A DNA stretch of 64,000 bases from Lachnospiraceae bacterium (GTDB lineage Bacteria > Bacillota > Clostridia > Lachnospirales > Lachnospiraceae): assembly GCA_015057505.1 (NCBI GenBank), contig SVEG01000008.1, positions 8,682-72,681 of the forward strand. The letters run 5' to 3'. Made by a program: the position numbers and the translations under genes. This document shows, piece by piece, positions 14,788 to 21,691 of the stretch (the first letter of the stretch is position 1; every line of letters begins with the position of its first letter). The notes beneath the pieces are model-generated. The model was not told the origin of the DNA. It saw only the letters and a program-made list of their open reading frames with translations, and searched no databases.

Positions 14788-15222
14788 CTATTGATTCAAC
14801 GCTGAATCCATAAGTTTAATCATCTCTAATGTACTGTTAAAGTTCTGTCTTATTCCTTTCTCAAGCCAGCAAATCTCTCCCTGCCAATCAGCATTCATTC
14901 TGAACTTGACATGAATCGAAAAGTTTGCAATTCCTTCCTCGCAAGCAATCTCTTCATATATTTTATCAATTTCTTTGTTCTTCTTCGCACGCTTAACAAG
15001 TCTCTTCACACCAAAACTTCTTGTCTCCATAAACTTCTGCGGAAATGAAAGCGAATTATACAAACTTTCAAGACCGTTAATAAGTTCCGTTGTACTGATG
15101 AAAGAAATCTTTTTCTCATAATAATCATTGTATATGGTTCCCTGTATCTCTCCTTCAGAATATGAAGTCACACACACCATAACCTTTGATGCCATTGATG
15201 TAACCATCTTCTCGTCTCGCAT
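14788..15222 (-). CDS. Hypothetical protein, last gene of the filament-like operon
   Basis: 144 aa. AGGAGG RBS 5 nt before the ATG. Starts 9 nt after the pilT-like stop. No motif recognised. Confidence 0.6.
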   Translation of the reverse strand: MRDEKMVTSMASKVMVCVTSYSEGEIQGTIYNDYYEKKISFISTTELINGLESLYNSLSFPQKFMETRSFGVKRLVKRAKKNKEIDKIYEEIACEEGIANFSIHVKFRMNADWQGEICWLEKGIRQNFNSTLEMIKLMDSALNQ

Positions 15223-15231
15223 ATAAACCTC

Positions 15232-16293
15232 CTACACCAACTTTTTCGCCATTGCGTCTTGATTTGTTGCATAAAACAACGCATTTTCCTTTGAAATAAT
15301 GCCTTCCTTATATAATCTAAGCAAATCTGTATCCATAGTAATCATGCCCTCATCCATACTCGAATAAATAACATTATCCATCTGGTGCACCTTACCGTCA
15401 CGGATAAGACTTCTGATTGCACTGTTAACAAGCATTATCTCAAATGCAGGTGTAAGCTTGCCATCTACTGTCGGAATTAACTGCTGTGATACAACTGCCT
15501 GCAAAACCATCGAAAGTTGTATACGAATCTGCTGTTGCTGATTCGCAGGAAAAACATCCACGATTCTGTCAACCGTCTTGGCCGCGCCAACCGTATGTAA
15601 TGATGAGAATACAAGTTGTCCCGTCTCTGCTGCGGTAAGTGCAGTCTGAATCGTCTCAAAATCTCTCATTTCACCAAGAAGTATTACATTGGGAGACTGA
15701 CGAAGTGCCGCCCTTAATGCCTGCTCGTAACCTTCCGTATCAAGCATAATCTCTCGCTGGCTCACAATACTCTGCTTATGCGGATGAATATACTCAATAG
15801 GATCTTCTATCGTAATGATATGCTTTCTGCAATTGCGATTAATCTCGTCTATAATACATGCCAAGGTCGTTGTTTTACCGCTTCCTGCCGGTCCTGTCAC
15901 AAGTACAAGGCCCTTCTGACGCTGATAAAGTTCCGTAACAACCTCAGGAATATTCATCTCCTTTGCATTGGGGAGTTCAAAACGAACCACACGGAGCACA
16001 GCAGCAAGAGAACCTCTCTGCTTATAAGCATTGCAACGAAAACGCCCCATACCGCTGAGTGAAAAAGAAAAGTCATCATCACCCTTGGAAAGCAATGTCT
16101 GAATATTGCCGTTCTCATACAAATTATAAATATTCTCCAAAAGGATCTGCGTATCCTTATAATTCATCTTCTCATCATTAATCGGGACAATATTGCCACC
16201 CTTTTTAAATGATACCGGAAAACCTGATACTATAAATACGTCCGATACTTTTTCGTCCAATGCCTTCTGTAATATTTCTTTAATATCTAACAC
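15232..16293 (-). CDS. pilT: PilT-family type IV filament ATPase
   Basis: 353 aa. Walker A GPAGSGKTTT, IEDPIEY, LLGEMRD, AETGQLVFSSLHT, and the PilT signature AIRSLIRDGKVHQM. GTG start after AGGAGG. Confidence 0.88.
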   Translation of the reverse strand: MLDIKEILQKALDEKVSDVFIVSGFPVSFKKGGNIVPINDEKMNYKDTQILLENIYNLYENGNIQTLLSKGDDDFSFSLSGMGRFRCNAYKQRGSLAAVLRVVRFELPNAKEMNIPEVVTELYQRQKGLVLVTGPAGSGKTTTLACIIDEINRNCRKHIITIEDPIEYIHPHKQSIVSQREIMLDTEGYEQALRAALRQSPNVILLGEMRDFETIQTALTAAETGQLVFSSLHTVGAAKTVDRIVDVFPANQQQQIRIQLSMVLQAVVSQQLIPTVDGKLTPAFEIMLVNSAIRSLIRDGKVHQMDNVIYSSMDEGMITMDTDLLRLYKEGIISKENALFYATNQDAMAKKLV

Positions 16294-16302
16294 GTTTTCC
16301 TC

Positions 16303-19133: not shown

Positions 19134-19157
19134 AATATATTCCCTCCACTTTACAGG

Positions 19158-20462
19158 TTAGTATCGTTTCACTTCAACATAATTCTGTCCGGTCGCTCCT
19201 CCCGCTGCGAATGTAGCGTCAAAAAGAGTCCATTTACCATTATAATATACCTTGTTCCATGCATGCCATGATGCACCTTTTGCCGAACCATATATTACCT
19301 GCGTCGGTATACCCTGTGCCCTAAGCATCGCAGCCATAAGTACCGCATAATCAAGACATATACCTTTTTTCGTACTGAGAGTAACATCCGGCGACGAAAC
19401 ATAATTGGTGCCCACATTGGCAGCTTTATCGTAATCATACTTTACATTTGCCACAATAAATTCGTAAACTGCATTTACCTTCTGCTCGTCGGTTGTCTTT
19501 CCTGAACACAACTCAAATGACTTCTTAACAGCGTCCGATTCCTTTGTATATTCAACTCGCTGAGTCGGTATCAAATATGGATTATTCTCGTTCGTCATTG
19601 ATGCTTTTATCGTTGTAGCATGTACCTGAAAATATCTGCCCTGACCGTTATTCTGATAAACCCCGACAGTATATGAACCACTACCCGATTGAAGCGAATA
19701 CACCTCATATGTACCATTCATATTCAAATTATAGTCGTAAGTTGTTCCGTCCTGATATATTATACGAATCTTAAGATTAGAATTGGCACCTTCCATCTTA
19801 ATCATAATATATCCGTCATTTGCATTACTATAATCTATCGTAGCACCATTCTGTGAGCTTACCTTTATCCCCGATGCTTTCGCTTCCTTTATATCTCCCA
19901 CAATCACCTTAGGCGGTTCCGGCTCAACCACGGGTGGATTTGTGCTCGTTGTCGGCTCCTCAGTAGTAGTCGGCTCCGGAGTACTCGTCGGCTCCGGGGT
20001 ACTTGTCGGCTCCGGAGTACTCGTCGGCTCCGGGGTACTTGTCGGCTCCGGGGTACTCGTCGGTTCCGGGGTACTTGTCGGTTCCGGGGTACTTGTCGGT
20101 TCCGGAGTACTCGTCGGCTCCGGGGTACTCGTCGGTTCCGGAGTACTCGTCGGCTCCGGGGTACTCGTCGGTTCCGGGGTACTTGTCGGTTCCTCTGTAC
20201 TTGTCTGTTTCTCAGTACTTGTCGACTCCTCCACATTTGTTGAAAAATCTGAAGAAGTTTCCGTTGTCGATTCTGATGCAGTTGTATTATCCGGGCTACT
20301 GCTTTGTTTTTCACCACTTCCATCTTCCGTCTCATATGTAGAGGCTGTAGAAGTGTCTGTATCACCACTGTCAGGCGTTTTACTACACGCCACAGGAAAG
20401 TTCAGTAGCAGAATTCCCGCTATGCACAAAGCGGCAAAGCGGCGTAATATTCTACTATTCAA
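19158..20462 (-). CDS. Transglutaminase-like lipoprotein with EPTSTP repeat linker
   Basis: Lipobox FPVACS. Cys-His-Asp core (KGICLDYA, SWHAWN, LFDATF). The ORF track start is 20480 (TTG). The TTG at 20462 is 6 nt after GGAGGG. Confidence 0.8.
   Translation of the reverse strand: MNSRILRRFAALCIAGILLLNFPVACSKTPDSGDTDTSTASTYETEDGSGEKQSSSPDNTTASESTTETSSDFSTNVEESTSTEKQTSTEEPTSTPEPTSTPEPTSTPEPTSTPEPTSTPEPTSTPEPTSTPEPTSTPEPTSTPEPTSTPEPTSTPEPTSTPEPTTTEEPTTSTNPPVVEPEPPKVIVGDIKEAKASGIKVSSQNGATIDYSNANDGYIMIKMEGANSNLKIRIIYQDGTTYDYNLNMNGTYEVYSLQSGSGSYTVGVYQNNGQGRYFQVHATTIKASMTNENNPYLIPTQRVEYTKESDAVKKSFELCSGKTTDEQKVNAVYEFIVANVKYDYDKAANVGTNYVSSPDVTLSTKKGICLDYAVLMAAMLRAQGIPTQVIYGSAKGASWHAWNKVYYNGKWTLFDATFAAGGATGQNYVEVKRY
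19971..20204 (-). repeat. About 13 x 18-nt in-frame tandem repeat (EPTSTP)
   Basis: cggYtccggRgtactYgt units run head to tail with only synonymous-type variation. Confidence 0.95.
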
Positions 20463-20476
20463 AAAAGTCCCTCCAT

Positions 20477-21691
20477 TCAAATTTCTACAGGTTCAATCGC
20501 CTGTAATCTGGATACGAGTTTTATTTTGAAATTTTTATTTTTACTTCTAAACCGTTCTTCAATCCTCGCGCAAACCTTTTGACCGTTTTCATATGATGTA
20601 TACGGCAAAAGCGCGACAAGCTGAAGCGTACTGTATTTTGAAACAACATCACTCATACGCAGACTGTCAACCATAATATTCTTAAGAAGCATTATTGAAC
20701 GCTTGATTACTTCCTTATCAGGCATTCCTCCACCGATATCAGAAATCGTAAACAACGCAAAATACACTGATGCACCATTTCTCTGTAGCATTCTTGACTG
20801 CAACCTGTATATATTCTTGAATATGTCATAATCACAGAAAAATGCTCCTCGTCCCAAAACAGCTTCAATCAAATCTGTCTGTATATTACGAATATCATAT
20901 TCAACATTATGTACACTCTTTGTAAGTTCACGGTAAAACTTTACCGTTTCCTCTGAAAGCCCTACACCAAATTCCTCAAAAAACAGCTCCTCAATATGCT
21001 GATAATGTTCTGTCACCTTCTGCAAACGCGATGTTTTAGCATATGCCTCAAGAAGCATTACATGTACATCTTCGTCATAAGCATAAAAACAATTATATTT
21101 CTCGCATACCGTAACTATATCTCCGAATCTGCCGTCCTCACGCAGCATTTTAAGCAAAAGCTTCGTATTTTTGGTATAAAGCGAGTGATAATATGCATTT
21201 AAATGTATTACCCACTCATAAAAAGAGGATTTAGGCAAAAATTCACCCTTATACAGATTAAATATTTTGTTTAATTTCTCTATTTTATCTGACCGCTCAA
21301 TCTGCCCGTGCTCTACTTCTTCTGACAAAAGCTCCATTTCTTCTGTATCAACAACGCATTCCACAGCATTATTCCAGACATATGTATTACCTTCATACTT
21401 TATCAGATCTACTGATTGCTCATCATCTGCCCATAAACTCTTAAGTACATTCCTTGCTCTGTATGCCATATTCTTAAGCGTATTGAGCGGATTGTCAAAC
21501 TCCTCTCCATCCCAGACCGACTCAACAAGTTTCTCCTGTGAAACCGTAACATTGCGATTGGCGACAAGAAATTCTATCAAATTCATAACCTTCTTGGAAC
21601 GGCTGGACTCACCATTAAGAGTTCTGTCTCCTCTTCGGATAGAGAACTCTCCAAGCATCTGTATATAAAGCCGATTATTATCATTCTCCAT
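20477..21691 (-). CDS. Winged-helix/BTAD (SARP-like) transcriptional regulator with C-terminal degenerate GGDEF domain
   Basis: N-terminus LYIQMLGEFSIRRGD...LIEFLVANRN..VSQEKLVESVW is SARP/OmpR-like. C-terminus aligns by eye to GGDEF, with RMSD-VVSKY-STLQL in place of RxxD-xxxRx-GGDEF. Confidence 0.7.
   Translation of the reverse strand: MENDNNRLYIQMLGEFSIRRGDRTLNGESSRSKKVMNLIEFLVANRNVTVSQEKLVESVWDGEEFDNPLNTLKNMAYRARNVLKSLWADDEQSVDLIKYEGNTYVWNNAVECVVDTEEMELLSEEVEHGQIERSDKIEKLNKIFNLYKGEFLPKSSFYEWVIHLNAYYHSLYTKNTKLLLKMLREDGRFGDIVTVCEKYNCFYAYDEDVHVMLLEAYAKTSRLQKVTEHYQHIEELFFEEFGVGLSEETVKFYRELTKSVHNVEYDIRNIQTDLIEAVLGRGAFFCDYDIFKNIYRLQSRMLQRNGASVYFALFTISDIGGGMPDKEVIKRSIMLLKNIMVDSLRMSDVVSKYSTLQLVALLPYTSYENGQKVCARIEERFRSKNKNFKIKLVSRLQAIEPVEI

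Follow-up and report, generated by a model that had tools for sequence, protein, structure and literature searches.

Gene content and conservation of the locus

The 64,000-nucleotide stretch of contig SVEG01000008.1 analysed here (the window) belongs to the metagenome-assembled genome (MAG) of a Lachnospiraceae bacterium from the gut or rumen. On its minus strand, at positions 14788-21691, it carries nine packed genes which an earlier reading of the sequence alone (the original prediction) took for one operon, resembling a type IV filament (T4F) machine with a PilT-family ATPase as the only motor. All nine open reading frames (ORFs) were present when those of the window were checked, and they correspond to the MAG proteins MBE5948702-MBE5948710 (Table 1). 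They encode a regulator, a transglutaminase-like lipoprotein, a GspF/PilC-type platform, four small proteins of which the second belongs to the family DUF4860, the ATPase, and a soluble protein of 144 aa. On the evidence presented below, the locus is probably a reduced, divergent T4F machine specific to Lachnospiraceae and close relatives. The spacings agreed with those described, from a 29-nt overlap between the 114-aa and DUF4860 genes, when the latter is read from a TTG start, up to a 24-nt gap between the transglutaminase and GspF genes; with the ATG start preferred by gene callers the overlap shrinks to 8 nt. The NCBI product names are "hypothetical", T2SS F family, DUF4860, PilT/PilU family ATPase and, for the 142-aa protein, the label "type II secretion system protein" given by the annotation pipeline PGAP. 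Hidden Markov model (HMM) searches agreed with the identities proposed for the first three genes, namely a winged helix-turn-helix/BTAD/degenerate-GGDEF regulator, a transglutaminase-like lipoprotein and a two-domain GspF/PilC platform. The 114-, 142-, 160- and 144-aa proteins had no family match in HMM scans of Pfam and NCBIfam; searches of the PDB gave none for the 160-aa protein, and those of the PDB and PADLOC none for the 144-aa ORF.

About 100 related loci were gathered by a metagenome scan seeded with a DUF4860 alignment, by homologue look-ups and from one genome match, while a scan of genome contigs with the same alignment gave two loci. Groups at 70% DUF4860 identity defined 12 lineages, and annotation was performed with profiles and phmmer. 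In this survey of relatives, which the original prediction had proposed, a core of six genes (transglutaminase-like lipoprotein, GspF, 114-aa family, DUF4860, 142-aa family, 160-aa family) was found in identical order in all 12 sampled lineages (about 90 loci), and the core is widespread in Lachnospiraceae. The idea of nine genes forming a single unit did not hold: the conserved part comprises six, the regulator and the 144-aa ORF were confined among the sampled loci to the lineage of the window, and the pilT gene adjoins the core in 4 of the 12 lineages. The 160-aa gene is always the last of the core and lies directly upstream of pilT wherever the latter is present. An exception to the full arrangement was seen in one lineage (L095:8494-12974, also L096 and L097) where three small genes alone are kept beside PilT; here pheA is followed by DUF4860-like, 142-like and 160-like genes, then by the ATPase of the PilT clade and by a gene for a large secreted protein in which PD(Q)PSN repeats occur, and the GspF and transglutaminase genes are not adjacent.

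Since the identical gene order recurs across independent metagenome assemblies, the locus is not an assembly artefact. Clustered at 90% identity, the 114-aa family contains 2591 clusters and the 142-aa family 748, and their sources, where given, are Lachnospiraceae, Acetatifactor or "bacterium". One very abundant human-gut lineage contributed 53 of the loci. Literature searches on DUF4860, on Lachnospiraceae pseudopilins and on PilT-only systems found no description of the module, and a full-text search found no paper naming DUF4860.

Table 1. Positions of the genes and sequence features at the locus (window coordinates).
Feature	Position	Strand	Basis or remark
Regulator, 404 aa	20477-21691	-	Trans_reg_C, BTAD, degenerate GGDEF-like C-terminal domain
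Transglutaminase-like lipoprotein, 440 aa	19158-20480	-	Transglut_core and lipobox Cys
18-nt tandem repeat, 14.3 copies, in lipoprotein gene	19949-20205	-	TRF (Tandem Repeats Finder)
Short GspF/PilC-type platform, 352 aa	18075-19133	-	Two T2SSF domains
114-aa pilin-like protein	17712-18056	-	Family alignment, AlphaFold2 model
DUF4860 protein, 168 aa	17213-17719	-	PF16152; 175 aa from TTG at 17740
142-aa pilin-like protein	16788-17216	-	Class-III-like N-terminus, AlphaFold2 model
160-aa small protein	16303-16785	-	Family alignment
Perfect sigma-70 consensus in 160-aa gene	16640-16668	-	TTGACA-17-TATAAT
PilT-family ATPase, 353 aa	15232-16293	-	TIGR01420; GTG start, good AGGAGG ribosome-binding site
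Soluble ORF, 144 aa	14788-15222	-	ORF list; matches no family
Hairpin between orf144 and recJ	14706-14787	-	Read from sequence

The ATPase and the platform

The assignment of the ATPase to the PilT family was supported by three comparisons. Against the model TIGR01420 (pilT_fam) it scored 427.6 bits (cut-off 319), and against PilT structures in the PDB it scored 276-327 bits (5fl3 to 2gsz), with Aquifex PilT as the best match at 327 bits, compared with 85-88 bits for PilB/GspE. The signature AIRSLIRDGKVHQM near the C-terminus (AIRSLIRD motif, AIRNLIRE-type), read from the translation, is intact, as are the Walker A, Asp box, Walker B and His box motifs (GPAGSGKTT, IITIEDPIEY, VILLGEMRD and LVFSSLHT). 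The protein consists of the T2SSE domain alone and has no N1/MshEN domain. The third comparison was a neighbour-joining tree rooted on PilB, in which the PilTs linked to the module formed one clade that excluded both PilTs taken from pilus operons, in 100 of 100 bootstraps. The phylogenetic check proposed earlier thus placed the protein with PilT and not with the extension-type ATPases.

When the ATPase of the window was searched with HMMER against 1.84 billion representatives, a handful of clusters at 56-66% identity stood above a large generic PilT background at 42-48%. All the high-identity representatives with retrievable context lie immediately 3' of an s160-like gene, that is, one resembling the 160-aa gene of the window. 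One of them, P0304 (L098), closes a complete array of GspF, 103-aa, DUF4860, 133-aa and 146-aa genes; P0301 (L095-97) follows the three small genes mentioned above; and P0299 and P0300, on short contigs, follow s160-like fragments with weak scores. Taken by locus, such a gene precedes PilT in the window, L006, L093, L094, L095-97 and L098, the matches in L093 and L094 being weak (13 and 21 bits). The sub-clade was found beside an s160-like gene in six of the seven recovered contexts, two of these being the short contigs with weak matches. In the seventh (P0311, L104:912-1997, 46% identical) an orphan gene of the clade sits between mscL and eno. Two representatives at 48% identity belong to textbook clostridial type IVa pilus (T4aP) operons, which encode PilB (MshEN + T2SSE), PilT, PilC, an N_methyl pilin, an A24 peptidase, PilM/N/O and further N_methyl proteins. 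By the tree and the gene neighbourhoods, the ATPase belongs to a PilT sub-clade dedicated to the module.

The platform protein matched T2SSF in two stretches (3.7e-45). Against the GspF model TIGR02120 it reached 218 bits (cut-off 424), in an alignment beginning at model position 54, and it is devoid of the N-terminal domain of canonical PilC: the PilC of clostridial T4aP has 405 aa and a T2SSF_N domain, whereas the platform of the window has 352 aa. A SpoIIIA-like sporulation channel was considered and rejected, as the ATPase and the platform score as PilT and GspF, not as SpoIIIAA/AB.

Other components of a pilus were then looked for. There is no second T2SSE or T2SSF gene in the window, and phmmer with clostridial T4aP queries (E<=1) detected no relative of PilB, PilD, PilA, PilM or PilN in its six frames; two clostridial PilB queries matched the pilT gene and nothing else (83-94 bits), in agreement with the earlier statement that a separate PilB/GspE extension ATPase is missing. 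Neither PilB, PilD, PilMNO nor an N_methyl pilin was found in any of the roughly 100 module loci. For the prepilin peptidase (Peptidase_A24), two PilD queries had no match at E<=1 in the six-frame window, nor was one found in the related loci. The proteins of the window locus matched neither T2SSG nor secretin in Pfam, and a motif of the G-FTLxE type was absent from all six frames of the window, as had been noted for the small proteins. The reported absence of a peptidase is correct for the window, although beyond it components encoded in trans are the rule for this family.

The same applies to the motor. An ATPase linked to the core, when there is any, belongs each time to the PilT clade and never to PilB; nevertheless, 8 of the 12 lineages, among them the human-gut lineage with its 53 loci, showed no T2SSE gene up to 10 kb from the core, and since no ATPase adjoins the core there, the motor or motors act in trans. 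The view of PilT as the only motor therefore stands for the window alone. Orphan members of the clade, encoded alone, may supply the ATPase in trans to cores that have none beside them.

Taking into account these trans-acting motors, the core could be an accessory module of a conventional type IV pilus (T4P), that is, an alternative platform with a set of minor pilins or tip proteins, served by PilB and PilD encoded elsewhere and with PilT as the retraction motor. We regard this as possible but on balance rather unlikely. Most lineages have no ATPase beside the core, so motors must exist in trans, and a small residue at -1 gives the 142-aa family a plausible site for prepilin cleavage (see below). 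Peptidases and ATPases are often encoded apart from the pilin genes, for example in MSH loci (PMC6668835), and canonical PilB-PilT-PilC-PilD operons exist in related Clostridia. On the other hand, a platform of its own would be redundant for a mere minor-pilin set, the linked ATPase is never PilB, the PilTs of the module form a clade apart from those of the operons, and three of the four small proteins have no recognisable prepilin site. A 2011 survey reported no pil operon in Ruminococcus gnavus and Eubacterium ventriosum (PMC3244431), which also speaks against an accessory role, with the limit that the module status of these two species is not known.

Small proteins, lipoprotein and regulation

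AlphaFold2 models calculated with family alignments cover the 142-aa and 114-aa proteins. The 142-aa model (pLDDT 85.3) contains a helix at residues 4-61, a short helix and a three-stranded sheet; the 114-aa model (pLDDT 83.5) contains helices at 8-63 and 70-77 and a beta-hairpin or small sheet. In both, the transmembrane segment continues unbroken into alpha-1, as in pilins. The best long Foldseek alignment of the 142-aa model was with EpsI/GspI (2ret_C; probability 0.91, TM-score 0.63 over the target, E=0.23), and those of the 114-aa model were with gonococcal pilin 1ay2 (TMq 0.41) and Thermus PilA4 6xxd (TMq 0.39), at E>1. According to these models, two of the four small proteins are predicted to be pilin-like lollipops; the fold sought by the original prediction is thus present in both models, while the matches to known pilins remained below significance.

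The 142-aa protein had been pointed out as the closest to a class III signal, and its family bears this out. In 118 representatives a 7-residue leader (MKHSKSS; M-K-H-S-[KR]-S-[S/G/A/T]) is followed by LFLME at positions +1 to +5, Glu5 is invariant, and position -1 is occupied by S in 85, G in 16, A in 13, T in 3 and R in 1, the last being the copy of the window. The corresponding segment reads [VT]-R-A-F-L-T-E in the window and L006 and A-N-A-L-L-V-E in L098. If the Glu is counted as +5, position -1 is thus R in the former and N in the latter; if it is counted as +4, position -1 is A in both. Judged by its alignment, the family signal appears class-III-like, with Ser rather than Gly usually at -1. 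Considering the basic 7-residue leader, the small residue at -1 and the invariant Glu5 across the family, processing by a prepilin peptidase encoded elsewhere is possible. Weak matches to GspJ, PilV and XpsI models, well below the cut-offs, were obtained for 14 of 64 members in Pfam and NCBIfam scans, and Pfam N_methyl matched neither these 64 members nor the small proteins of the locus. No pilin was recovered when all PDB sequences were searched with the four small families, by sequence or by profile, so homology to known pilins is not demonstrable by sequence.

The 114-aa protein is the most conserved of the small subunits. Its N-terminal transmembrane helix looks uncleaved, like a plain signal-anchor, and its ectodomain carries the family motif KQ.ESLE.AL...I..CYAVEG.YPPS..YL..HYGL.YD. 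Most members start with M-N-R-F-E (N2, R3, F4 and E5 nearly invariant), and a stretch of about 10 polar residues leads from there to the transmembrane segment; the copy of the window starts with MHLYR and does not have this motif. The DUF4860 protein (PF16152, 1.4e-17) also has an N-terminal transmembrane helix, with the motif H-x-x-[DE]-[VI]-[LI]-F-x-L-x-LFG, in which an acidic residue is similarly placed and no small residue precedes it. No relative of DUF4860 was found in the PDB. Its N-terminus gave a weak in-register alignment to the segment around Glu5 in the 142-aa family (hhalign E=0.0038, probability 9%), and this was the one match among the profile-profile comparisons of the small families. 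In the 160-aa family a basic N-terminus is followed by G-x-x-S-I-L-[LM]-[IV]-F-V-x-L-x-L-x-x-F-A-x-L-S-x-x-S-A-x-A-D, which may be that of a cap pilin like PilX, ComGG or TadG or, equally, a Sec signal peptide with an AxA site.

These N-termini also bear on a device that builds no filament, in which a PilT-like ATPase and a GspF-like protein were co-opted for extracting or translocating single-pass proteins, or for exporting or activating the enzyme, with the small proteins as substrates or adaptors. The known activity of PilT is the extraction of subunits into the membrane, three of the small proteins are devoid of Glu5, a residue that normally helps subunits to pack, Sec-type cleavage of the 160-aa protein is possible, and no major pilin with an N_methyl signature is present. 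However, two of the small proteins are modelled with the continuous transmembrane-to-alpha-1 helix typical of pilins that polymerise, Glu5 does not vary in the 142-aa family, and the fixed order of the four mirrors that of minor-pilin sets. We consider such a device improbable.

The lipoprotein matched Transglut_core with 2.7e-22 (79.5 bits, cut-off 23). From the N-terminus it is organised as a lipobox Cys, a (PEPTST)n spacer, a beta-rich domain and Transglut_core. All 11 aligned lineages keep the lipobox Cys and the catalytic residues, namely Cys (in GIC[LS]DY), His (in HAW) and Asp (in D[AP]T), and wherever a locus extends far enough the gene lies upstream of GspF. Among solved structures the nearest are 3isr and 4xz7, uncharacterised putative cysteine proteases, and the protein is predicted to be a papain-fold Cys-His-Asp enzyme, which may act as a protease, a transglutaminase or an amidase. 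The proposed link with a transglutaminase-like surface enzyme was therefore reinforced, as the lipoprotein is a conserved member of the core. The spacer is the Pro/Thr-rich linker encoded by the 18-nt repeat, whose copy number differs between strains: a near-identical metagenome allele (L001) has 36 repeat residues fewer, and the exact 440-aa sequence is absent from the protein collection, in which all the other proteins of the locus are present. A spacer length that varies between strains is typical of wall-spanning spacers. The enzyme was also considered as a stand-in for the prepilin peptidase and rejected on topology; prepilin peptidase cuts on the cytoplasmic face, where the leader peptide is, while the lipoprotein is extracytoplasmic.

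With these families described, it is possible to weigh whether a pilus operon has decayed here into a non-functional remnant. The pilin signals of the locus depart from the canonical form, and no PilB, PilD or PilMNO is encoded nearby. However, every ORF is intact, 12 lineages have the same gene order, the families amount to thousands of clusters, and the catalytic triad, the Walker motifs and Glu5 are invariant, which makes decay highly improbable.

The regulator of the window matched Trans_reg_C (2.5e-07) and BTAD (3.8e-06), with a sub-threshold match to GGDEF (E=0.12) in which the GGDEF position is occupied by YSTLQL. A regulator of this type was not found in any distant module locus. Many distant lineages instead have three genes ahead of the core and on its strand, for a two-transmembrane GGDEF-domain protein with a GGNEF motif, an extracytoplasmic function (ECF) sigma factor and a 170-aa single-transmembrane protein, presumably the anti-sigma factor (observed at L019:5653-6357, L089:6045-7864 and L007:6442-7514); in these lineages the core is convergent with rpoC. 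A degenerate GGDEF domain near the system thus appears, from the domain matches, to be a recurring theme, with seemingly interchangeable regulators. Given the BTAD/winged helix-turn-helix and degenerate GGDEF regulator here, and the ECF sigma factor, putative anti-sigma factor and GGNEF protein elsewhere, envelope or second-messenger signals would probably govern expression.

A perfect TTGACA-17-TATAAT site was detected 346 nt upstream of the pilT start, inside the 160-aa gene. There are two such sites in the window, compared with 0.04 expected. The second (42309-42337, plus strand) lies directly upstream of a thiamine pyrophosphate (TPP) riboswitch (42347-42456), and because it fronts this element we take the perfect sites to be real promoters in this organism. 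The predicted internal promoter suggests that pilT and orf144 can be transcribed apart from the core, and co-transcription of orf144 with pilT is likewise suggested. In L006 the position after PilT, held by the 144-aa ORF in the window, is taken by a HAAS-domain protein.

The hairpin described earlier before recJ was seen, with a 9-bp stem (CATCCCTTA...TAAGGGATG); it has no T-run and was not called by the terminator scan. At the boundary between xerD and the regulator there is a terminator-like hairpin (21804-21783) together with a promoter-like site (21775-21747). An origin in a prophage or a defence island was rejected, in view of the housekeeping flanks (recJ, pepF, xerD, spoIIM, proC), the uniform composition and the PADLOC anti-phage models, which gave generic P-loop matches to the ATPase alone and nothing specific. 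The RNase P RNA (class A, 288 bits, 38486-38845, minus strand) and a tRNA gene (6657-6728, plus strand) are ordinary housekeeping features and consistent with a chromosomal context. Elsewhere in the window, a 678-aa ORF with no Pfam family (8248-10284, minus strand) and a 304-aa BspA-type leucine-rich-repeat protein (6944-7858, plus strand) may be surface proteins. An 891-aa hybrid histidine kinase (HisKA-HATPase_c-REC; 46673-49348, minus strand) has an unusual fusion to a C-terminal DegV fatty-acid-binding domain, and two more hybrid kinases, with Hpt domains, are located at 49352-52153 and 60366-63125.

Proposed mechanism and comparison with known systems

For the reduced T4F machine that we favour, the following mechanism is proposed. 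The four small proteins would insert in the membrane with the N-terminus inside and assemble on the GspF platform into a short pseudopilus or a fibre similar to a tip complex, resembling as a set the minor pilins GspH-I-J-K or ComGD-G, with the 114-aa protein as the likeliest repeating subunit. A hexamer of the PilT-clade ATPase would dock on GspF and supply the energy; it may act in both directions, as CpaF does in Tad pili, or serve chiefly for disassembly and turnover. Spanning the thick wall, the fibre would work with the lipoprotein, whose catalytic domain would be held off the membrane by the spacer. Three roles are conceivable for the lipoprotein itself: it may be the cargo of the system or its partner, a peptidase that remodels the wall and so makes way for the fibre, or an enzyme by which the fibre is modified or cross-linked.

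PilT as the sole motor of this system is plausible. A single or unconventional motor is credible in view of the bifunctional ATPase of Tad and of retraction in systems without PilT (PMC6668835), the requirement of PilT for extension of the MSHA pilus of V. cholerae (PMC9815625), and the proposal that clostridial T4P genes are a Gram-positive analogue of the type II secretion system (T2SS) (bioRxiv 10.1101/2024.11.04.621531). A more specific version would have the PilT-clade ATPase as the sole bidirectional or assembly-competent motor, subunits left unmatured by prepilin peptidase, and the transglutaminase-like enzyme acting on the fibre, for instance through cross-links at the invariant Lys43-Gln44 of the 114-aa subunit, or by anchoring the fibre, or cutting it, through the wall. 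Dominant gut commensals would then have a pseudopilus that is stabilised covalently or integrated in the wall. We hold this whole combination to be doubtful.

Several observations weigh against a filament machine driven by PilT. The motors in trans of 8 of the 12 lineages undermine any conclusion from local gene content that PilT is the only motor here. Neither AlphaFold2 model had a statistically significant pilin match in the Foldseek search of the PDB (E 0.2-7). Three of the four small proteins have neither Glu5 nor a small residue at -1, and even the 142-aa protein of the window has R at -1 when read with Glu5, or A at -1 when read with Glu4. Finally, the 160-aa protein, to judge by its AxA site, could simply be secreted by the Sec route.

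Lachnospiraceae are among the most abundant bacteria of the gut and the rumen, and to our knowledge their surface machinery is almost unstudied. The module accounts for thousands of protein clusters now annotated as "hypothetical", "DUF4860" or a generic "T2SS protein". Should the PilT-clade ATPase power the system without another motor, the system would stand as a mirror image to Tad and Com, which also have a single motor, and would offer a natural test of what sets the direction in which T4F motors run, a question of long standing. With a transglutaminase-like lipoprotein as obligate partner, the module points to a new connection, in monoderms, of pilus-like fibres with the covalent chemistry of proteins or of the cell wall. 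Even on a conservative reading, a new and easily recognised gene cluster becomes available to annotation pipelines, together with its signature motifs.

The module was compared with four known systems. With the T4aP of Clostridia (C. perfringens and C. difficile types) it shares a PilT-family ATPase (the sampled operon PilTs are 46-48% identical to that of the window), a PilC/GspF platform with two T2SSF domains, and small proteins that begin with a hydrophobic helix and fold as lollipops. It differs in that its loci contain no PilB (MshEN + T2SSE), PilD, PilM/N/O or N_methyl-positive pilin, in the shorter platform without T2SSF_N (352 against 405 aa), in the separate clade of its PilTs, and in the transglutaminase-like lipoprotein. 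The ComG system is similarly minimal: it has a short ATPase (about 350 aa) that lacks an N1 domain, a single platform, a row of four to five genes for small pilin-like proteins and no PilMNO, and its peptidase is encoded elsewhere. In contrast to ComG, the ATPase of the module is PilT-type (129.4 bits with the ComGA model NF041000, cut-off 300) and last in the gene order, the platform scores below the ComGB cut-off (144.5 against 240 bits), a ComGC-like G-FTLxE major pilin is absent, and there is a transglutaminase-like partner.

With the T2SS, the platform scores best with the GspF model (218 bits), the four small proteins recall GspH-I-J-K, the 142-aa model is nearest to EpsI/GspI, and the 142-aa family has weak matches to GspJ and XpsI. 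However, the host is a monoderm, GspE, GspG, the secretin and GspC/L/M are absent, and the scores stay below the family cut-offs (123.7 bits for the ATPase with the GspE model, cut-off 630, and 424 being the cut-off for GspF). The likeness to Tad/Flp is one of concept, with a single ATPase (CpaF) for extension and retraction and pseudopilins of the TadE/F/G type with degenerate N-termini; the ATPase of the module is, however, not TadA/CpaF (TIGR03819, 44.2 bits, cut-off 373), one two-domain platform takes the place of TadB and TadC, and neither a Flp pilin nor TadV is found.

The module thus falls outside T4aP, Com, T2SS and Tad as these are defined. It does have the features of a T4F in the broad sense, since a PilT/VirB11-class ATPase, a GspF/PilC platform and predicted pilin-fold subunits are encoded together, and the description of a compact, divergent machine of this type has been borne out. 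Its closest relatives are the ComG pseudopilus by architecture, GspF by platform sequence and the PilT of clostridial T4aP by ATPase. What is new is the transglutaminase-like lipoprotein as an integral component and the linkage to a PilT clade alone, neither of which is described in the searchable literature.

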